Shown piece after piece: positions 2,842-37,250 of a stretch of DNA of 39,544 nucleotides. This DNA comes from Anaerolineales bacterium. GTDB taxonomy: Bacteria > Chloroflexota > Anaerolineae > Anaerolineales > JABWBV01. The notes beneath the pieces were generated by a model. It did not search any database and was not told the DNA's origin. It saw nothing but the letters and a program-made list of their open reading frames with translations. Positions within the stretch are counted from its first letter, which is position 1. Each line of letters starts with the position of its first letter. The stretch covers positions 1-39,544 of the forward strand of contig JBFKII010000002.1 in the NCBI GenBank assembly GCA_041632295.1, given 5' to 3'. The translations under genes were made by a program, and so were the position numbers.

Positions 2842-5058
2842 TCATCCGCCCGGGTGCCAGTCGGGGTCAAAGTCGAAGGCGGGGTCGGTGGTCAGGCGGG
2901 TGACGGCCAGGGTGTCCAGCTCCATCAAGTAAATATCGTGATTTTCCCCGTCCGGCCAGCTCTCGAAAAGCAGCCATTTGCCGTCCGGGGAAATCGCTGG
3001 TGACCGTGAGGGGGAATTGCGCGGCGTCAGGCGGAATTCGGACATCCCATCCGCCTCCAGCGGCGCCCGGATGATGTTCGGCACCCCATTCGGCTGCTCC
3101 CGTTGTGCAAAAATCAGGAAAGTCCCGTCCGGGGACCAGACCGGTGAGATATTTTTCAAGTCGCTGCTGCGGGAGAAGCGCACCTGGTTTTCCCCGTTGG
3201 GATCCATCACCCAGACCTGGAAAGGCCCTTTGCGGCTGGAGATAAACGCGATTCTGGAACCATCCGCCAGCCAGGTAGGCTGCATGTTCTTGAGGCCTTC
3301 GTCGGCCAGCAGGGTGACGGAGCTGTCGACAAAATCGAGCAGGAAGATCTGGGCCAGTTGGTTGCGCAGAGAGGTGAATACAATCTGGGAGCCCTCCGGA
3401 GACCACTCCGGGTCGTAATCACCGTTCGGGAACGACGTCACAGGCGTGAGTCCGGTGCCATCGGCGTTGATGATGAAAATCCCTGCCCCGGGATATTCCT
3501 CCTGCTCCCCTGAACAAGGGGAGATCAGCAGCAGGCGAGTCCCATCCGGCGACCAGTCCGGTTGGCAGGCCCCTTCCTCCAGAAAAGTCAGCTGGCGCAT
3601 TTCGGACCCGTCGGTCCGCAGGGTGTAAATCTGGGGAATTCCGCTCCGATCGGAAACGAATGCCAGCAGCGGCCCGCCGCCGGTGGGCGTATTCGTCTGG
3701 GTGGGGGTATCCGTGATCGTCGGCGTCAGGCTGGGCGTGGGGGTCTCTGTCGGAGACAGGGGGACCGGGGAGGGAGTTTGGGTTGCCTCCGCAGTCGGGC
3801 TCGGGGTCGGGGTGGCTGGTGGTTCGGTTGCGGCAGCCAGTGCGGTGGCGGTGACGATCGATACGTGGGTCCCGGTCGCATCCGCCTGGGAGGTGGCAGT
3901 CTGGATCGGCACCATCAGGAAGGAAAGCGCCTCTCCGGTTTGGGAGGGAAAGAAGTAAAACGCCGAGGCGGTCCCACCGCCAAGCAGCAGGACGATCAGA
4001 GCCAGCCATGTCCAGCAGCCCAGCCGCCTTCTGCGCCGGTTCCGGGCAGAATTCGGACGGCTGTCGTATACCTCATCGACGATCTCGCTCAGCGGGAGCG
4101 TGGACATGGAGGCTTTCGACTTGCCATTGGCGCTGCCGTAATCAGCCGCCTTGGAAAGGGCTTCGGCCACTTCGACCTCCACCATTTCATCGGGATGGGC
4201 ATCCGGCGGGGGCGCTACAACCAGGTCTTCCAGGTTGTAGCGCCGGCGGGTGATCCCGCGGGAGTTGATCAGCGCTTTTTTGAACTCCTCCGCGGTCTGG
4301 TAGCGGTCATCCGGCTGGACGGCCAGGGATTTCTCGATCACCCCGGCGAGTTTTCGCGAGACCTTTGGGTTGTATTTGCGAACAGGGGTCAACACGGTCT
4401 GGTTCATCGCCCGTGCCAGGCCGTCTTCCGGAAGCTCAGCCGTCAGGCTGGAAAAAAGGGTCGCTCCCAGGGAATAGATATCCGAGCGGACGTCGGTGCG
4501 GGCGGTTCCATACTGTTCGGGAGGCGAATAGCCGGGTGTCATGGCCCGGGCGCCGGTCACCGTCATCTGGTCGCCGCTGAGAATCTTGGCCAACCCGAAG
4601 TCCACCAGGTACACCTGGCCGTTGGGGGAGATTTTCACGTTGCCGGGCTTCACATCCCGGTGGAGTACACCCGGCTCGCGGGAATGTAAGTATGTCAGTG
4701 CGTCGCAGATTGCGATGCCGATCTTGATGACGTCATCCTCTTCGATCACCCCCACCCGCTCCATCCGATCGCGCAGGTCCTCGCCTTCGATGTAGTCCAT
4801 CACCAGGTACTGGCCTTCGCCTTCATCGAAATGGTCGGTGACGCGGGTCAGATTCGGATGCCGCAGGCTGGCCAGGATCGTGGCCTCAATGCGAAATTGG
4901 CGGGAATATTCCTCTGTCGTGAACAGGTTTTCTTTAACCGCGACGGTGACCCCCAGGTTTTCATCGTGGGCTTTGTACACCGCGCCCATACCCCCTTCCC
5001 CTAGGATCTCTAATATCCGGTAGCGATTATGGAGGATCGTGTCTCTTTCGAGGGTCAT
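2842..5058 (-). CDS. Membrane Hanks-type Ser/Thr kinase with Pro/Thr linker and TolB/PD40 beta-propeller
   Basis: GEGGMG, VAVK, HRDVKPGN, DFG, YSPPEQ; one TM helix; PT repeats; repeated PxWSPDG motifs. Confidence 0.92.
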   Translation of the reverse strand: MTLERDTILHNRYRILEILGEGGMGAVYKAHDENLGVTVAVKENLFTTEEYSRQFRIEATILASLRHPNLTRVTDHFDEGEGQYLVMDYIEGEDLRDRMERVGVIEEDDVIKIGIAICDALTYLHSREPGVLHRDVKPGNVKISPNGQVYLVDFGLAKILSGDQMTVTGARAMTPGYSPPEQYGTARTDVRSDIYSLGATLFSSLTAELPEDGLARAMNQTVLTPVRKYNPKVSRKLAGVIEKSLAVQPDDRYQTAEEFKKALINSRGITRRRYNLEDLVVAPPPDAHPDEMVEVEVAEALSKAADYGSANGKSKASMSTLPLSEIVDEVYDSRPNSARNRRRRRLGCWTWLALIVLLLGGGTASAFYFFPSQTGEALSFLMVPIQTATSQADATGTHVSIVTATALAAATEPPATPTPSPTAEATQTPSPVPLSPTETPTPSLTPTITDTPTQTNTPTGGGPLLAFVSDRSGIPQIYTLRTDGSEMRQLTFLEEGACQPDWSPDGTRLLLISPCSGEQEEYPGAGIFIINADGTGLTPVTSFPNGDYDPEWSPEGSQIVFTSLRNQLAQIFLLDFVDSSVTLLADEGLKNMQPTWLADGSRIAFISSRKGPFQVWVMDPNGENQVRFSRSSDLKNISPVWSPDGTFLIFAQREQPNGVPNIIRAPLEADGMSEFRLTPRNSPSRSPAISPDGKWLLFESWPDGENHDIYLMELDTLAVTRLTTDPAFDFDPDWHPGG

Positions 5059-5222: not shown

Positions 5223-7637
5223 TCAGATCCGGGTCACTGTGCCGCAGAATTCGCAGGTGATTTCCGTCTGCCCCCGCAGGACGGGCATGGTGATTTGTGC
5301 CCCGCAGTTCGGACACTGTGTCGGTGCGTTGCGGACCCGCTCGATCTCCGCCGGGTCGATCTCCACCGCCCGATCGGACTGGTATTCCCCACCGCGGGCG
5401 CGCCCGATCATCTGCAGCCAGTCCTCCCCGACAGGCGCGGAAAGGGCAAATCGACCTGAAGGCAGGGGGGCCTGTCCGGTAAAAGAAAACACCAACTCCT
5501 CTTCGCCTTCATCTGCGCCTTCACCGGGTTGCTCCACGCTGACCCGGTCAATGGCCGCCAGCGGCACATCCACTTTCAATTCATAATCCCCAACCCGATC
5601 CTCCCACAACAGGCGTTGGTCGGTCAGGAACAGCACGCCGTTTTCCGGCTCCATCCCTGGGAAAGCGAACTCCGCCTCCGTGGCAGCCACGCCGCTCTCG
5701 GTGGCCAGCAGCCGGAAAGAAGCGGTCGAGAGGGCATCCAGCATCCAATCGACCCAATCCAGGTGGGCGTCCATCCCTTCCACTTCAGCGGCGTAATCGT
5801 CGAACTGGCCGAACACGGTCTCCTGGGCAGCGGCAGCCTGTGCTTCCGCAGAGGCGATCGCCGATTTCAACTGCATGAAAACCGGGCGGGCAGCCCCCAG
5901 GTTGGCGCTCAAACCCGCCAGCTGGGCCATCAGGCCCTGGATCTTCTGGGACTGCTCTGCCAGGATTCCGGCCTGCAGTCCGATGGTTTTTTCCGCATTG
6001 CCTTTGACCCGGTCCCATTGGGCCTGCAGGATGGCGATATCCCCTTCCAGCCCGCGTTCGATGACATAGCCGCGGGCCCGAACATCGGCCAGGCTGCGGC
6101 CAAGGCTCTGGACCTGGTTTTCCAGCTCCTCAAGCTCTTCTCGGGCTTCCGCCAGCATCAGCTCATCCTGAAGCTGGTTGATTTCGGATTGGACAGAAAC
6201 GATGTCAGCCTGGGTGACTTCTCCGCTCAGATCACGGAACGAAAGCCCGACCTCCGAGGCGCGCTCTTCGGCGATTTTGCCGCTGCGCACTTTCTCGATC
6301 CACACCGCCCACGCCTCCGAATCCTGGCCGTCCAGGTGCAGGGATAGCGTGCCGTCCTTTCCGGCAGCGACCTCCAAAAAATCCTGGTGACCGAACAGGC
6401 CTTTTGTCTGGGCTTTGACCATTCCCAGGCCGGAGACCGGGGCTGAAAAGACCACCTCCTGCACCAGTTCTTCCTCGGTGGTGATAAACAGCACTTTTTT
6501 GGTGGCGACCTTTTCCTTGCGCTCGAAGAGCAGGCGCTGGTCGGACAGGAACAGGACTCCCTCGGGATCGTCCTTGCCTTCTTTATCCAGGCGGGCCCGC
6601 ACTGCCATGACCAGGTTTTCACCCTCCCCCATCTGGAAGCGGGCTTCATCCAGTTGGGAAAGCGCCCAGTGAATCCCGGTCAGTCGGGCGTTGAGCGCCA
6701 TCACATTGCGTTCCACGGTCCCGTACTTCGACCGTATGTTTCCGCGCACCTGGTTGACCTCCCGGAGCAGCCCATTGACGGTCGTTTCCGCCCGGCGCAG
6801 GTACGGGGAGGCCGCGGCAGGGCTGCCCAGATGAGCGTTCAGCTGGGGCAGCTGCGACTCGAGCGGGGACAACCGGTTTTGAAACGAGTGGCGCTGGGAC
6901 TCGATCTCTGTGACCACCGGCTGGTGCACACTTTGCCAGACCTCCATCGTTTCGTAAGCCAACTGATCCAGGTCGCTCTGGTACAGGTACCCGCGTTTGC
7001 GGGCGCTCTCTAACAGATCGAGGGCGTGCTGCAGGGCCTGATCCAGCTGGTCCAGGTCGGCGCGCACATCCTCGAATGTGCTCAGGCTCTGCAGGCTGGA
7101 AAGGGCGTACTGCAGTGCATACAACTCCGAGGAAAGTTCAGGGTGTGCCCTGGCCGGGTTGATATTGAAGCCGCCCGCCTCCAGCCCGGCGCCAACGGCT
7201 GCCGCGGGCCGCGACGCTTTCGCACGCACGCGCGGGCCGGGCTGCGGCCGTGGTTGTGCTGCCGGCCGCGGCCGGGCAGCGGGCCGGGGCTGGGAACGCG
7301 GTCGAACCGGCCGCCCAATCTGGGCCACCGGAGCCCGGCTGGGACGGGCCAGGCGTCGCGGCCGGTTAGCAGCCACTGTGGCAATATTTACCGGGGCGCG
7401 CCGTTGAGGCATGATCTTGCGCGGCGCTGCAGCCGGGCGGACCTGCGGGCGCACCCGCTGCGTCTGGCGCCTCTGCCGGTGGATGGCCTCCTGGCGGACG
7501 GCCCGGCGCTGGTTGCGGTTCAAGTTGGCCGCTTTTGACAGCCCGACCCGGCGCGTGTTTCCAGCCGGCCGGTTGGTGCGCATCCTGGATTTCATGCCAC
7601 CAGAACGGGCAGCAGGGCGCTTCATCTTGCTGGGCAT
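5223..7637 (-). CDS. Hypothetical protein: Arg/Pro-rich N-terminus, two helical-bundle + PH/GRAM-like repeats, C-terminal zinc ribbon
   Basis: 804-aa ORF with AGGAGA RBS; duplicated GVLFL(S/T)DQRLL motif; CPNC...CEFC. Confidence 0.85.
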   Translation of the reverse strand: MPSKMKRPAARSGGMKSRMRTNRPAGNTRRVGLSKAANLNRNQRRAVRQEAIHRQRRQTQRVRPQVRPAAAPRKIMPQRRAPVNIATVAANRPRRLARPSRAPVAQIGRPVRPRSQPRPAARPRPAAQPRPQPGPRVRAKASRPAAAVGAGLEAGGFNINPARAHPELSSELYALQYALSSLQSLSTFEDVRADLDQLDQALQHALDLLESARKRGYLYQSDLDQLAYETMEVWQSVHQPVVTEIESQRHSFQNRLSPLESQLPQLNAHLGSPAAASPYLRRAETTVNGLLREVNQVRGNIRSKYGTVERNVMALNARLTGIHWALSQLDEARFQMGEGENLVMAVRARLDKEGKDDPEGVLFLSDQRLLFERKEKVATKKVLFITTEEELVQEVVFSAPVSGLGMVKAQTKGLFGHQDFLEVAAGKDGTLSLHLDGQDSEAWAVWIEKVRSGKIAEERASEVGLSFRDLSGEVTQADIVSVQSEINQLQDELMLAEAREELEELENQVQSLGRSLADVRARGYVIERGLEGDIAILQAQWDRVKGNAEKTIGLQAGILAEQSQKIQGLMAQLAGLSANLGAARPVFMQLKSAIASAEAQAAAAQETVFGQFDDYAAEVEGMDAHLDWVDWMLDALSTASFRLLATESGVAATEAEFAFPGMEPENGVLFLTDQRLLWEDRVGDYELKVDVPLAAIDRVSVEQPGEGADEGEEELVFSFTGQAPLPSGRFALSAPVGEDWLQMIGRARGGEYQSDRAVEIDPAEIERVRNAPTQCPNCGAQITMPVLRGQTEITCEFCGTVTRI

Positions 7638-7730: not shown

Positions 7731-9668
<1,938 letters not shown>

Positions 9669-9932: not shown

Positions 9933-10061
9933 CTCGAGAAAATTTGATTCTGATCGTTTACCCTGCTGATTGGAAAGGAGGTGTATCGCAAAAGAATCCC
10001 CCCTACGACCCTTTCTTGCTCAGTTTTACATATACCTAATCAAGCTTGAGGAGAATGAAGT

Positions 10062-11291
10062 ATGAATAAGCGAATTTTCGCAATCTTGCTTGTCCTGATC
10101 GCCGGCGCGATGGTACTGAGCGCCTGTGCCGGGGCAGCCACGCTCGAGTGCACGGATGCGATCGGCTGTGTCGAGATCGCGCCCGATGAACCCATCCACC
10201 TGGCCGCCATGCTGACCACAACCGGAGCAACCGCCTTTCTCGGTGAGGACTCCCTGGGCGGTGTCGAGATCGCCATCGACGACCGGGGCGGCGAGCTGCT
10301 TGGGCATCCGATCGAACTGACCGTGGAATACTCCGGCTGCTCCGCCGAGGGCGGCCAGACGGCTGCCACCAAAGTTGCTGCCGATCCCACCATCGTGGGC
10401 GTGGTCGGCACCAACTGCTCCAGCGCGGCCACCGCTGCCATCGGCACGATCAGCGGCGCGGGCCTGGTGATGATCTCCCCCTCCAACACCGCCCCGGCCC
10501 TGACCGATCGGGACGGCACCTGGCAGCCCGGCTACTACCGCACCGCGCACAACGACCTCTTCCAGGGCCGCGTGGCTGCTGAGTTCGCCTACAACGAACT
10601 GGGCGGCCGGACCGCTGCCACGATTCACGACGGCAGCCCCTACGCCGACCAGCTGCAGCAGGTCTTTGCGACAACGTTTGTTGAGCTCGGTGGCACCATC
10701 ACCTTCCAGGGTGCGGTCAACGTCGGGGACACCGACATGCGCACCATCTTGACCAGCGTCGCCGCGGACAGCCCGGATGTGCTCTACTTCCCGATCTTCG
10801 AGCCGGAAGGCCCCTTCATTGTGGCCCAGTCCTCCGAGATCGCTGGCCTTGAGAACACCACACTGATGGGTGCCGACGGTCTGCTGGTCTCCAGCTTCCC
10901 CGGCAATGCCGGCGCCAACGCAGACGGCATGTACCTCTCTGGTCCGTTCCTGCAGGGTGCATCGTACGACGAGTTCCTGGCGAAATGGGATGCCAAATAC
11001 GGCGGCGCGCCGCCCAGCGGCTTCCACGCTTTCGCTTATGACGGCGCCAACATCATGATGGACGCCATCGAAGCGGTGGCTCAGGTCGGCAGCGATGGCA
11101 CGGTTCTGATCGGCCGCCAGGCGCTGCGCGAAGCCATGACAGCCACAGCCGGCTTCAACGGCCTCTCCGGCAACCTGACCTGTAGTGAGACCGGCGACTG
11201 CGCCACCGGTGAAGCGCTGGGGATCTTCCAGATCACCAACGACGAAATCGAGGGCGGCAACTGGCCCCCGAACGTCGTCTGGACCCCCTAG
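10062..11291 (+). CDS. livK: Branched-chain amino acid ABC transporter substrate-binding lipoprotein
   Basis: Lipobox LSAC; GTNCSS, SPSNT, YRTAHND, AYDG motifs; first gene of the liv cluster. Confidence 0.88.
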   Translation: MNKRIFAILLVLIAGAMVLSACAGAATLECTDAIGCVEIAPDEPIHLAAMLTTTGATAFLGEDSLGGVEIAIDDRGGELLGHPIELTVEYSGCSAEGGQTAATKVAADPTIVGVVGTNCSSAATAAIGTISGAGLVMISPSNTAPALTDRDGTWQPGYYRTAHNDLFQGRVAAEFAYNELGGRTAATIHDGSPYADQLQQVFATTFVELGGTITFQGAVNVGDTDMRTILTSVAADSPDVLYFPIFEPEGPFIVAQSSEIAGLENTTLMGADGLLVSSFPGNAGANADGMYLSGPFLQGASYDEFLAKWDAKYGGAPPSGFHAFAYDGANIMMDAIEAVAQVGSDGTVLIGRQALREAMTATAGFNGLSGNLTCSETGDCATGEALGIFQITNDEIEGGNWPPNVVWTP

Positions 11292-11321
11292 TGCAACTTT
11301 TCGGACGTCATAAGTGTTAAT

Positions 11322-11361
11322 AACATCGTGAGCCGGGGACAACACCCCGGCTCACGATGTT
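11322..11361 (+). terminator. Perfect 17-bp hairpin after the binding-protein gene (partial terminator or mRNA stabiliser)
   Basis: AACATCGTGAGCCGGGG-ACAACA-CCCCGGCTCACGATGTT followed by CTTT. Confidence 0.75.
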
Positions 11362-25288: not shown

Positions 25289-25335
25289 AGCAAGCGCTTA
25301 ATGTATACCATTTAAGTGCTTGCTTTTGTCTGTTT
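25289..25335 (+). promoter_or_regulatory. Attenuator-like hairpin in the rpoC leader
   Basis: 13-bp stem AGCAAGCGCTTAA / TTAAGTGCTTGCT (one G-U pair) followed by TTTGTCTGTTT. Confidence 0.55.
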
Positions 25336-25400
25336 CAGTCGAATACGCATTTTCCCGAAAAAACGCACCCTCTTTTTCTACGCTCAGGAGGCACAACCGA

Positions 25401-29696
<4,296 letters not shown>

Positions 29697-35105: not shown

Positions 35106-37250
35106 CTAGATGAAGCGCTCCCGGATATTGGAACTGACATAATCCAGGGTCGCCACCGTGATGGTGATCAGCCAGACCGCCAGACCGGCCGATTCGTAGT
35201 TGAAGAGCCGGATCCACTGGATAAGGATAAAACCGATGCCACCGCCGCCGACCGCCCCGATGATGGTCGACATGCGCACATTGATATCCCAGCGGTAGAT
35301 CGTGAAAGAGATGAATGGCGGCAGAATCTGCGGCACGACAGCGTAGACGATGGTCTGAAGGCGACTGGCCCCGGTGGCTTGCAGGGCTTCGATCGGGCCC
35401 TGATCGATGCTCTCGATCGATTCGGAATACAGCTTTCCGAGCGCCGCGATGGTGTGCAGGGTAAGGGCGATCGTTCCGGCAAACGGCCCCAGGCCAACCC
35501 AGATCGTGCCGATAATGGCCCAGATCAGCGGCTCGATCGATCGCACGATGTTCATGATCGTTCTTGCGATCGAATAGACCACCATGCCGGTGCTGAACTC
35601 GTTGAGGGCGATGCGGTAGCCGTATAACGCGGCCAGCAAACCCAGCGAAGCGGCCCCGATCAGGGCGTTGCGGGTTTCCAGGTTCTCCGGGACGACACCG
35701 GCCAGCGGGATAGAAACAATGCCACGCGTGAAACCGATCCCCAGAATATAGCCGAAGGCGGCGGCGAGCAGGCCGATCCCGACTGCGGTCACCAGACGGC
35801 CGATGAAAGGGGCGGTTTGCCGGCCTATCCAGCGAAACAAACCCGTACCCAGCCGCCAGCCAAGGATCCAGAGCAGGAGCAGGAGCAGCAGCGATACCCC
35901 GGCCACCTGGACCGGGGCATCCGCTAGGCCTCCGAGCATCACCGAAGCCTGCCGGCTCAAAACTACCAGCAGCCATCCGGCCGGGATCAGCCCTACCAAT
36001 CCGCCTACGACCTCAATGAAACTTCCTGATATCGGCTCCATTAAGTTTCGGGCGGCGATGAAGCTGAATGGGAAAGCCAGGATGACCCCAAAAAAAGTCG
36101 CCATCAGACCAATCATGATCGTTTCCAGCATGCCTTGCAGTGCAAGCTCAATATCTTCGCTCAGGTTGCCGGTGAATAACTTGCCGCTCTCCTCTCGGAT
36201 GATCAGCGTATGGACCTGATCCCCGACAGCCGTGGACGGGATAATTACTTCCGGCACGAAAATGTTGGTGACGAATTCTCCATTTTCGTCGATCTGAATG
36301 GTGGTTTCTCCAACCCCGCGGGGTCGGAAAGGATTGCCGATCGGGTTTTTCCAGAGCAGGTCGACCTCCGCCTCAGGAGTGAAATTGCCCCCGGTGATGG
36401 TCAATTCGGTGCCGAAAGTCAGGCCGCCGGTCGAAAGCTCGCGCGTGCTGATGTCTCCGCAGGTGGGTGTGACGCTGATCCAGGCCTCCCCCTCCACCGG
36501 TTCATTGACCGGCGGCCCGGTAGCACCCTCCGGGCAGGGCGCCTGAACACGGGCGGTGGTTTCGACTGCGATATCCTCATATTCGAAAGCCGCCCGCCAG
36601 GGCCACGCTATTCGGCCCAGAATAACCTGGGTGTCCTTGTACTCGGCGATCGCCTTCTGCATGTCAATTTTCGTGATGTTCCAGCCCAGGGAAAAGATCA
36701 CCAGGCACAAAAAGGCGATCCCCCAGGTGAAAGCCGGCCTCTCAGCGGGGCGCGCCCCTACCTGGCCGCCGTCGACGACGTTCCACATGTGGAATGCAGA
36801 CAGGGCAGCTGCCGCAAACAAGGCGGTTCCGCCGTAAATCTTGCTCAGGTTTTCCGCCGGACCCGCCAGTTCGAAGATCCGATCCTGCACAAACAAGAGC
36901 AGGAACGCATACACAAGCCCCACCGCAATGTTGATGATCGTGCGGGTGGAGGCATCCTCCGCCATCCTGCGCAACAGGAGGTATCGCAGGGCGGCCGCAA
37001 ATACCATCAAGGCCAGCGTCTGGAGATAAATGAAAATGAAAAGCTGCCTGCTCACATCCAGGTCCGGGAATCGGGCCCGCTGGGCGATGGTCCAGATGCT
37101 GAGCCAGCCCAAAACCAGGAAGCTCAGGATGATGGAAATGCCCCGGCTGCGCTGCCCGGCGATGAACTGCCCCAGGCCCGGGACGAAGAATGACAGAATG
37201 GCATGCAGCATGGAACCCGGCTTCCGGCCGGGCTGGTTGTTCATGGCCAC
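35106..37250 (-). CDS. phnE: Phosphonate/phosphate-type ABC permease, greatly enlarged
   Basis: C-terminal RSIEPLIW, GKLYSESIE, EALQATGA, YRWDINVRMSTIIGAVGGGGIG; follows phnC. Confidence 0.88.
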   Translation of the reverse strand: MAMNNQPGRKPGSMLHAILSFFVPGLGQFIAGQRSRGISIILSFLVLGWLSIWTIAQRARFPDLDVSRQLFIFIYLQTLALMVFAAALRYLLLRRMAEDASTRTIINIAVGLVYAFLLLFVQDRIFELAGPAENLSKIYGGTALFAAAALSAFHMWNVVDGGQVGARPAERPAFTWGIAFLCLVIFSLGWNITKIDMQKAIAEYKDTQVILGRIAWPWRAAFEYEDIAVETTARVQAPCPEGATGPPVNEPVEGEAWISVTPTCGDISTRELSTGGLTFGTELTITGGNFTPEAEVDLLWKNPIGNPFRPRGVGETTIQIDENGEFVTNIFVPEVIIPSTAVGDQVHTLIIREESGKLFTGNLSEDIELALQGMLETIMIGLMATFFGVILAFPFSFIAARNLMEPISGSFIEVVGGLVGLIPAGWLLVVLSRQASVMLGGLADAPVQVAGVSLLLLLLLWILGWRLGTGLFRWIGRQTAPFIGRLVTAVGIGLLAAAFGYILGIGFTRGIVSIPLAGVVPENLETRNALIGAASLGLLAALYGYRIALNEFSTGMVVYSIARTIMNIVRSIEPLIWAIIGTIWVGLGPFAGTIALTLHTIAALGKLYSESIESIDQGPIEALQATGASRLQTIVYAVVPQILPPFISFTIYRWDINVRMSTIIGAVGGGGIGFILIQWIRLFNYESAGLAVWLITITVATLDYVSSNIRERFI

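Follow-up and report, generated by a model that had tools for sequence, protein, structure and literature searches.

GRAM and pleckstrin homology (PH) domains are well-studied eukaryotic membrane-targeting and peptide-recognition modules, and to our knowledge few bacterial PH-like proteins have an established role. SPFH proteins are scaffolds of membrane microdomains. Anaerolineae are abundant filamentous bacteria of sludge, sediments, and soils, and we know of next to no work on their cell biology. For the closest described systems, eukaryotic GRAM domains are reported to bind membrane lipids (PMC7957428), BdpA is reported as a bacterial protein with BAR-like activity (PMC8687657), Bacillus subtilis YdjI depends on the membrane proteins YdjG and YdjH to reach the membrane (PMC8581546), and a band-7 architecture with a C-terminal zinc ribbon (ZnR) and the two ZnRs of YdjG have been described (PMC11237479). 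Here, we report on an 804-amino-acid protein, P0001, encoded within 39,544 nucleotides (the window) of an Anaerolineales bacterium (assembly GCA_041632295.1, contig JBFKII010000002.1, positions 1 to 39,544). The protein is real, conserved, and uncharacterized, and its domain architecture is a new one assembled from known folds, in which two long helical bundles, each followed by a GRAM-type PH head, stand between a basic tail and a zinc ribbon. We tentatively read it, with a probability of roughly 40%, as a cytoplasmic, non-enzymatic scaffold or adaptor lying beneath the membrane.

Domain architecture

The gene and its parts lie on the reverse strand as follows.

5223..7637 (-): whole open reading frame (ORF), 804 amino acids plus stop codon, protein P0001
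7203..7637 (-): disordered polybasic N-terminal tail, residues 1-145, with 35 Arg, 22 Pro, 24 Ala, and one acidic residue (net charge, +40)
7407..7457 (-): conserved short linear motif in the tail, residues 61-77 (RVRPQVRPAAAPRKIMP), RVRPxVRPxxxPxxxMP
7143..7202 (-): Ala/Gly-rich, weakly hydrophobic stretch, residues 146-165, ahead of the conserved "AHP" with which bundle 1 starts
6639..7142 (-): helical bundle 1, residues 166-333, antiparallel long helices, the last of 59 residues (AlphaFold2 model)
6261..6638 (-): GRAM-type PH domain 1, residues 334-459, seven strands and a C-terminal helix in the model, motif GVLFLSDQRLLFE
6438..6536 (-): long beta-hairpin arm in GRAM 1, residues 368-400 (LLFERKEKVATKKVLFITTEEELVQEVVFSAPV), from the AlphaFold2 model and alignment A1
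5721..6212 (-): helical bundle 2, residues 476-639, three antiparallel helices, folded alone
5382..5720 (-): GRAM-type PH domain 2, residues 640-752, from superposition on solved GRAM domains
5226..5327 (-): four-cysteine (C4) zinc ribbon, residues 771-804, CPNC at 775 and CEFC at 795

A sequence-only reading of the window had placed the gene at 5223-7142; the ORF is real, and that span starts at residue 166 and omits the 165 N-terminal residues, the tail and its start being common to close homologues. The motif pairs quoted in that reading for two tandem repeats are all present in the translation (LESARKRGY/LADVRARGY, WALSQLDEARF/WMLDALSTASF, EGVLFLSDQRLLFE/NGVLFLTDQRLLWE, and WIEKVRSG/MIGRARGG, followed by CPNC...CEFC), and the duplication itself was recovered when residues 151-470 were compared with residues 466-804 by BLASTP (E, 9e-11; 26% identity in 169 columns), in an alignment running from the RxRGY motif through the bundle end to the first GRAM strands. 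The homologous repeats are residues 166-459 and 476-752. Its statement that transmembrane segments and signal peptides are lacking agrees with the hydropathy profile, in which the highest 19-residue Kyte-Doolittle mean is 1.16 (inside a beta-hairpin) and thus too low for a transmembrane helix, and with the lack of any signal-like segment; the stretch at residues 146-165 is too polar for such a helix in this protein and more hydrophobic in some homologues (P0124, 1.98). Taken with the zinc ribbon, whose four cysteines are invariant in all 59 aligned sequences (alignment A1), these features point to a cytoplasmic location. The ribbon, too, had been called from sequence, and two CxxC pairs 20 residues apart (CxxC-16-CxxC) were found in all 120 listed homologues.

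Residues 160-804, leaving out the tail, were modeled with AlphaFold2 from the 59-sequence alignment A1 (mean predicted local distance difference test score [pLDDT], 85.7; predicted TM-score [pTM], 0.56). Each repeat is modeled as a bundle of long helices, a loop of about ten residues, a seven-strand sandwich, and a closing C-terminal helix; the last bundle helix measures 58 to 59 residues in either repeat, and a small ribbon ends the protein. Bundle 1 comprises model helices 7-27, 30-55, 63-96, 98-109, and 114-172 (pLDDT mostly 86 to 95). Bundle 2 was also folded alone (residues 470-640; 58-sequence alignment A4; pLDDT, 97.0; pTM, 0.87), giving a helix 1 that is kinked and helices 2 and 3 of 46 and 60 residues. 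The long helical bundle proposed from sequence before each PH domain was seen in the whole model, and that of repeat 2 also when folded by itself.

The whole model was compared with 48,161 representatives of the PDB (VIA-align), and the PH/GRAM fold proposed from sequence was borne out in its best structural matches, in which GRAM 2 superposed on the GRAM-PH domain of MTMR2 (1lw3; Z, 13.6; root mean square deviation [rmsd], 3.1 Å; 111 residues aligned) and on that of Lam6 (GRAM; 5yqr; Z, 13.2; rmsd, 2.4 Å; 99 residues). Further PH-fold matches include the GLUE domains of EAP45 (2dx5; Z, 11.7) and Vps36 (2cay; Z, 11.1). In the model, the strands and helix of GRAM 1 follow the same pattern; among the matches listed, it was aligned only within matches spanning both repeats, such as BBS5 (6vbu_5; Z, 12.3; rmsd, 16.4 Å). 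The Pfam GRAM profile (PF02893) matched the whole protein in two stretches at 32.1 bits (cut-off, 23.6), both domains falling under that cut-off when scanned singly (GRAM 1, 17.1 bits; GRAM 2, 22.1 bits), and it was matched at an E value of ≤0.01 in 9 of 40 single-unit relatives scanned. Neither bPH_3 (PF14470) nor related bacterial PH families appeared among the Pfam matches of P0001; the homologue P0006 gave bPH_3 at 16.8 bits (cut-off, 23). GRAM 1 additionally has a beta-hairpin arm of 33 residues (model strands 209-223 and 226-241; pLDDT of <50 at its tip) with invariant residues E213, K215, E216, K221, K222, and F225 in A1; single-unit relatives retain the arm, and GRAM 2 lacks it. Invariant H/W/Q/E/D/R positions of A1 also fall on the GRAM heads.

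For helical-bundle models, calibration of the structural search put the level needed to rise above noise at a Z of about 13. The best PDB matches of bundle 2 were the de novo bundle 5j0l (Z, 10.4), a Plasmodium invasion protein, axonemal proteins, trypanosome receptors, and EzrA (4uy3; Z, 8.2), and Foldseek returned no match to it at an E value of ≤0.001. Kinship with PspA/ESCRT-III (PF04012) was considered and rejected, there being no PspA_IM30 match in the protein by Pfam and no such chain among the 50 best structural matches of the bundle.

No named family covers the whole protein in Pfam, NCBIfam, or sequence searches of solved structures, as the earlier reading had also concluded. NCBIfam returned merely SMC-type coiled-coil noise far under its cut-offs, PADLOC gave weak LmuB/JetC coiled-coil matches alone (E, ≥3.6e-4), and no catalytic family was among the Pfam, NCBIfam, and PADLOC matches. 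Solved structures searched by sequence, with P0001 and with two family profiles, yielded coiled-coil-type, composition-driven matches only, the best being 8qox_B (E, 9.5e-4), over a low-complexity helical stretch. Scanned alone, the ribbon gave sub-threshold Pfam matches to Zn_ribbon_9 (23.7 bits) and a TFIIB ribbon (22.2 bits), with no single family over its cut-off. COG1579/Zn_ribbon_9 (PF02591) was rejected as a family for P0001: against a cut-off of 29.1 bits the whole protein reached 19.1 and the ribbon alone the score just given, hhalign covered the ribbon only, and a true member lies elsewhere in the genome. Full-text word searches of one literature library on bacterial GRAM, zinc ribbon, and coiled-coil proteins and on PH/GRAM domains in Chloroflexi/Anaerolineae found nothing on this family.

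Charge is split sharply along the chain. The folded body (residues 166-804) has an isoelectric point (pI) of 4.5 and a net charge of about -46, so that the tail is the only strongly basic element left. Within the tail, the motif core R[PA]x[VIL]RP occurs in 57 of the 87 double-form homologues with tails of at least 60 amino acids, is followed by a similar P..(V/I)MP stretch in the 45 rows listed, and was seen in just 1 of the 36 single-unit relatives with a tail. The motif could serve as a docking peptide.

Homologues and evolution

A word-indexed search found 373 homologues at an E value of ≤0.001, and at the same threshold 561 representative clusters were recovered when 1.84 billion representatives were searched exhaustively with a profile. 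The 119 non-self homologues listed are 52 to 78% identical to P0001, and those with names come from Anaerolineales or Chloroflexi metagenome-assembled genomes, where they are annotated as hypothetical. A few homologues (P0006, P0008, P0042, and P0106) carry the precomputed Pfam accessions PF28019.1 and PF26095.1. Size and ribbon classes were counted on 150 listed cluster representatives of the 561. Single units, 320 to 540 amino acids long with a C-terminal ribbon, made up 93 of them (median, 391 amino acids; 43 at ≤365 amino acids), and the others comprised 5 proteins of at least 600 amino acids, 10 short pieces with a ribbon, and 42 proteins without a C-terminal ribbon. On these counts the single-unit form is the more diverse and the ancestral one (alignment A2), with one bundle, one GRAM, and one ribbon; it is a unit of about 350 amino acids with a rigid three-helix bundle (helices of 46 to 60 residues), a GRAM domain, and a C4 ribbon.

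A tree was built from 40 single units together with 20 units of each repeat, the latter drawn from the window and every third row of A1. The repeat-1 and repeat-2 units formed one clade each, both with a Shimodaira-Hasegawa approximate likelihood ratio test (SH-aLRT) value of 100, which indicates one intragenic duplication before the double forms diverged. The bundle and GRAM part was thus duplicated once within the gene in the lineage of the window, an event that put two rods and two PH-type heads into one chain. The 373 homologues, the 561 clusters, and the fully supported repeat clades argue that the family is under selection.

The family is restricted to part of the phylum Chloroflexota. 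In the order of the window, 17 of 31 genomes matched. All six genomes of its own family did so, five with near-full-length double forms and one (G002) with a 133-amino-acid C-terminal piece at a contig end; double forms were also present in five genomes of four other families and single units in four genomes, and none of the 31 genomes held both forms. When the phylum was sampled evenly, 12 of 401 genomes matched. The 11 matches outside the window's own genome had frames of at most 466 amino acids, ten covering the single-unit profile and one (G286) being a 102-amino-acid fragment, and four of the ten belong to other classes. Single-unit loci were further collected from contigs of one genome per species, of which 80 stretches were kept out of 424 confirmed, all labeled Chloroflexota save one 5.6-kb contig binned as Nitrosomonadaceae. 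Above 0.9, feature-based searches of the Atlas returned only Chloroflexota clusters; weak leads at 0.76 to 0.81 were bPH_3 plus zinc-ribbon proteins of archaea (Promethearchaeota, Bathyarchaeota, and Thermoplasmatota) and Thermodesulfobacteriota. The pairing of a PH fold with a zinc ribbon may be wider among prokaryotes.

Relatives with SPFH modules

Relatives with a C-terminal extension after GRAM lack the ribbon in all cases but one, and five of the eight scanned matched Band_7_1 or Band_7 at an E value of ≤0.01, as follows.

P0248: Band_7_1, 86.3 bits (cut-off, 24)
P0240: Band_7_1, 24.8 bits (cut-off, 24)
P0245: Band_7, 28.3 bits (cut-off, 23.6)
P0262: Band_7_1, 22.7 bits (cut-off, 24)
P0151: Band_7_1, 21.3 bits (cut-off, 24)

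A local hidden Markov model of the C-terminal SPFH module matched 20 of the 386 collected family proteins, a sub-clade that includes these five, P0272 to P0275, and others. Nineteen of the 20 have no CxxC pair and P0151 has the ribbon and then the module, so the SPFH module and the ribbon occupy the same position. With P0248 as the query, more full-length SPFH fusions, 513 to 535 amino acids long, were recovered. The genome that holds the window has a separate Band_7_1 gene (locus L105, G000:C48, 1099-2169 [-]), in whose product a Gly/Ala/Gln-rich linker and an HTH_17 domain form the end in place of a ribbon. Upstream of it, a 179-amino-acid helical ORF (2222-2761 [-]) matches no Pfam family and contains a "KRGY" string resembling the RxRGY motif of the bundles; it is unrelated to P0001 by hhalign against alignment A2 (probability, 0.5%).

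Proposed role and alternatives

In the reading that we favor, the polybasic tail would anchor P0001 to something polyanionic, the cytoplasmic membrane's inner face being the likeliest surface, the acidic rods would serve as spacers, and partners, more likely proteins or peptides than anionic lipid, would be bound by both GRAM/PH heads and by the ribbon. The protein would thereby assemble or position a sub-membrane complex in the manner of YdjI/SamI. The parallel with SPFH proteins is the main positive ground for placing the family under the membrane, and relatives fused to SPFH/Band_7_1 lend indirect support to a membrane-proximal role in this looser sense.

Several observations weigh against such a role. 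The beta1-beta2 loops of many PH domains hold basic residues for binding anionic lipids; those of P0001 are acidic and invariant in A1 (DDPEG in repeat 1 [D198, E200, and G201] and EPENG in repeat 2 [E506, N507, and G508]), which makes proteins or peptides the more likely partners of the heads. The net charges of bundle 1 (-6), GRAM 1 (-6), bundle 2 (-16), and GRAM 2 (-14), like these loops, count against direct electrostatic binding of anionic membranes by these parts. Single-unit relatives often lack the basic tail (the 43 of 93 at ≤365 amino acids), so the tail cannot be essential for the core function. P0001 itself has no Pfam match to SPFH/Band_7_1 (PF13421), and the SPFH fusions form a small sub-clade (the 20 of 386). 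The genome, which is 88% complete, yielded no PspA homologue, so a YdjI-like link to PspA is not evident. Finally, gene neighborhood was not conserved across 12 sampled loci (8 double-form and 4 single-unit, with 5- to 9-kb flanks where the contig allowed) and the 80 single-unit loci, and the recurrent neighbors of the latter are divergently transcribed pentose-phosphate genes.

The sequence-only reading had proposed a BAR-PH-like membrane remodeler, whose bundles would form a single-chain pseudo-dimer with a curved membrane face and sense or generate curvature, the PH domains adding lipid specificity. BAR-PH proteins do share this layout, with a PH domain placed after a long antiparallel three-helix bundle, the intragenic duplication could in principle stand in for a homodimer, and BdpA is reported as a bacterial protein with BAR-like activity (PMC8687657). 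The 50 top structural matches of the bundle also include six BAR-type chains, namely the PinkBAR I-BAR (3ok8; Z, 8.9), the Rgd1p F-BAR (4wpc; Z, 8.6), a Galdieria BAR (3caz; Z, 8.5), the MIM IMD (2d1l; Z, 8.3), Bin1 (2fic; Z, 7.9), and the APPL BAR-PH (5c5b; Z, 7.3). These six, however, superpose at an rmsd of 5.7 to 7.2 Å, tie with unrelated bundles, and fall under the noise mark, in line with the empty Foldseek search; in the models, the BAR part of the proposal is indistinguishable from any long three-helix bundle. No BAR, FCH, IMD, or Arfaptin family was among the 22 Pfam families matched at an E value of ≤10, and no BAR-type family was among the 25 shown of the 67 Pfam families matched by the 40 single-unit relatives. 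The membrane faces of BAR domains are basic, but both bundles are acidic, as is the body as a whole, and the pTM of 0.56 gives no confident packing of one repeat on the other. Matches of the whole model were DH-PH proteins at an rmsd of about 20 Å, a common architecture and no rigid-body match, and no BAR-PH entry was among those listed, APPL 5c5b having matched the bundle alone. A membrane-bending pseudo-dimer is thus not upheld, and we regard it as improbable. It is unlikely, too, that P0001 is an adaptor linked to nucleic acid or the nucleoid, with the Arg-rich tail and the ribbon binding DNA or RNA and the PH heads recruiting proteins. The tail, with 35 Arg in 145 residues, is protamine-like, the ribbon has its sub-threshold matches to Zn_ribbon_9 and TFIIB, many homologues bear the Joint Genome Institute (JGI) name "predicted nucleic acid-binding Zn-ribbon protein," and gyrB, the next gene upstream in the window and on the same strand, also adjoins the homologue in one other family (locus L014). 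Yet the gyrB adjacency is found in only 2 of the 12 loci, and against the genome's own Zn_ribbon_9/COG1579 protein only the 32-column ribbon aligns (probability, 72%), the coiled coil not doing so. Many single-unit relatives are without any basic tail, a folded body with a pI of 4.5 would repel nucleic acid, and relatives have exchanged the ribbon for the SPFH module, a membrane-scaffold domain.

PH-fold EVH1 and PTB domains bind peptides, and EVH1-type folds bind proline-rich ones. P0001 might then be a self-assembling, spectrin- or EzrA-like cytoskeletal element of filamentous Anaerolineae, whose tail or Pro-rich motif would bind the next molecule, at its acidic body or a PH head, and so build a polymer or condensate for division or shape. 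The extreme charge split, the motif conserved in an otherwise variable tail, the match of the bundle to EzrA, and sub-threshold Pfam matches to Spectrin (in 5) and EzrA (in 4) among the 40 single-unit relatives all speak for this. But every spectrin or EzrA signal is sub-threshold and typical of any long bundle, the motif is nearly absent from tailed single-unit relatives, and no division or shape genes are conserved near the 12 and 80 loci, and we give such an element little credence. A complex prediction for two copies of a 357-amino-acid single-unit relative (alignment A2) scored 0.00 and 0.00, a result that carries no weight either way. Equally speculative, and in our view quite doubtful, is a Chloroflexota-specific membrane skeleton in which the tail would pin the protein to the inner leaflet, the Pro-rich motif would be read in EVH1-like fashion by the GRAM/PH head of a neighbor, the tandem units would act as a covalent dimer, and a head-to-tail lattice would shape or stabilize the membrane of filamentous bacteria. 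If true, it would be an independently arisen bacterial analogue of BAR-PH or spectrin-type scaffolds, interchangeable with SPFH modules.

Should P0001 be the sub-membrane scaffold or adaptor that we favor, it would be a component of sub-membrane organization in Anaerolineae and a tractable model for the ligands of bacterial PH folds; should that reading be wrong, the family would still mark a conserved function. The gene is single copy and conserved across many Anaerolineae, and the family offers a confidently modeled bacterial GRAM domain in a fixed architecture of rod, head, and zinc ribbon, a natural pair of single-unit and covalent double-unit forms, and natural swaps of ribbon for SPFH module.

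Genomic surroundings

The window is ordinary chromosomal DNA with housekeeping genes (G+C content, 58 to 65%). Directly upstream of the ORF on the same strand is gyrB (7731-9644), and directly downstream, 164 nucleotides away on the same strand, is a Ser/Thr kinase gene with PD40 repeats (2842-5058 [-]); neither of the intergenic gaps flanking the ORF contains a terminator-like site. The kinase is fused to a transmembrane-like segment, a Thr/Pro-rich linker, and PD40 beta-propeller repeats. Other genes of the window include a P-type ATPase, branched-chain amino acid ATP-binding cassette (ABC) transporter genes, rpoC, and gyrA. A 439-amino-acid ORF (10026-11345 [-]) matches no Pfam family at an E value of ≤1e-5 and has a 44% identical counterpart next to these same liv permease genes at locus L014, which belongs to another family. 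In rpoC (25320-29696 [+]), the Rpb1 domain 1 profile (312 positions) is stretched across residues 33-536, which implies a lineage-specific insertion of roughly 190 residues. In a 714-amino-acid ORF (35106-37250 [-]), the BPD_transp_1 ABC permease domain is confined to residues 541-707, with the 540 residues before it left unassigned, and the start may be over-called.

Among the 12 sampled loci, apart from gyrB in 2, the one neighbor to recur is a Ser/Thr kinase, in 4 (two from one genus, and one 2.4 kb off on the other strand), too few for a firm kinase link. All on the opposite strand, the neighbors that recur at the 80 single-unit loci are, upstream, transaldolase-PGI (36 loci), RpiB (24), and transketolase (18) and, downstream, a DUF429 protein (18), a hibernation factor (16), and GTP cyclohydrolase I (15).

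Comparison with known systems

P0001 and its relatives share parts with several described systems. COG1579/Zn_ribbon_9 proteins (HP0958 and CT398) likewise have a coiled-coil region followed by a C-terminal C4 zinc ribbon, whereas P0001 has a GRAM domain between helices and ribbon. In common with BAR-PH proteins (APPL1 and ACAP1), three long antiparallel helices directly precede a PH-fold domain; the helical part of P0001, at about 165 to 170 residues, is unlike the 201 to 288 of the matched BAR, F-BAR, and I-BAR chains. With the DH-PH modules of RhoGEFs (Dbs and Trio), the likeness is in domain order alone, a helical domain and then PH. Such modules were the top whole-model Foldseek matches (1kzg; E, 4.4e-07; target-normalized TM-score, 0.33; rmsd, about 22 Å), and identity with them (PF00621 plus PH) was rejected, since there is no RhoGEF match in Pfam, Foldseek gave an rmsd of about 20 to 22 Å and TM-scores of at most 0.33, and VIA-align gave an rmsd of 14 to 20 Å.

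Eukaryotic GRAM proteins (MTMR2, Lam6/Ltc1, and the GRAMD1 proteins) have the same seven-strand PH sandwich with a C-terminal helix and the strand motif G-x-L-x-L-T-x-x-R-L-x-F. P0001, in contrast, is bacterial, has two GRAM copies, each behind a long helical bundle, and is without a phosphatase or StART-like partner domain; its GRAM domains differ in their acidic invariant beta1-beta2 loops and negative net charge, and GRAM 1 in its hairpin arm. YdjI/SamI, a soluble protein with an SPFH/Band_7_1 domain, a stretch of low complexity, and a C-terminal zinc finger, is unlike P0001 in that the body of the latter is helical bundle and GRAM, with no SPFH domain, and no operon like pspA-ydjGH is present at the examined loci of the family. 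The two are alike in having no transmembrane segment and in combining a low-complexity region with a terminal ribbon, and relatives of P0001 carry Band_7_1 itself in place of the ribbon or, in P0151, after it.

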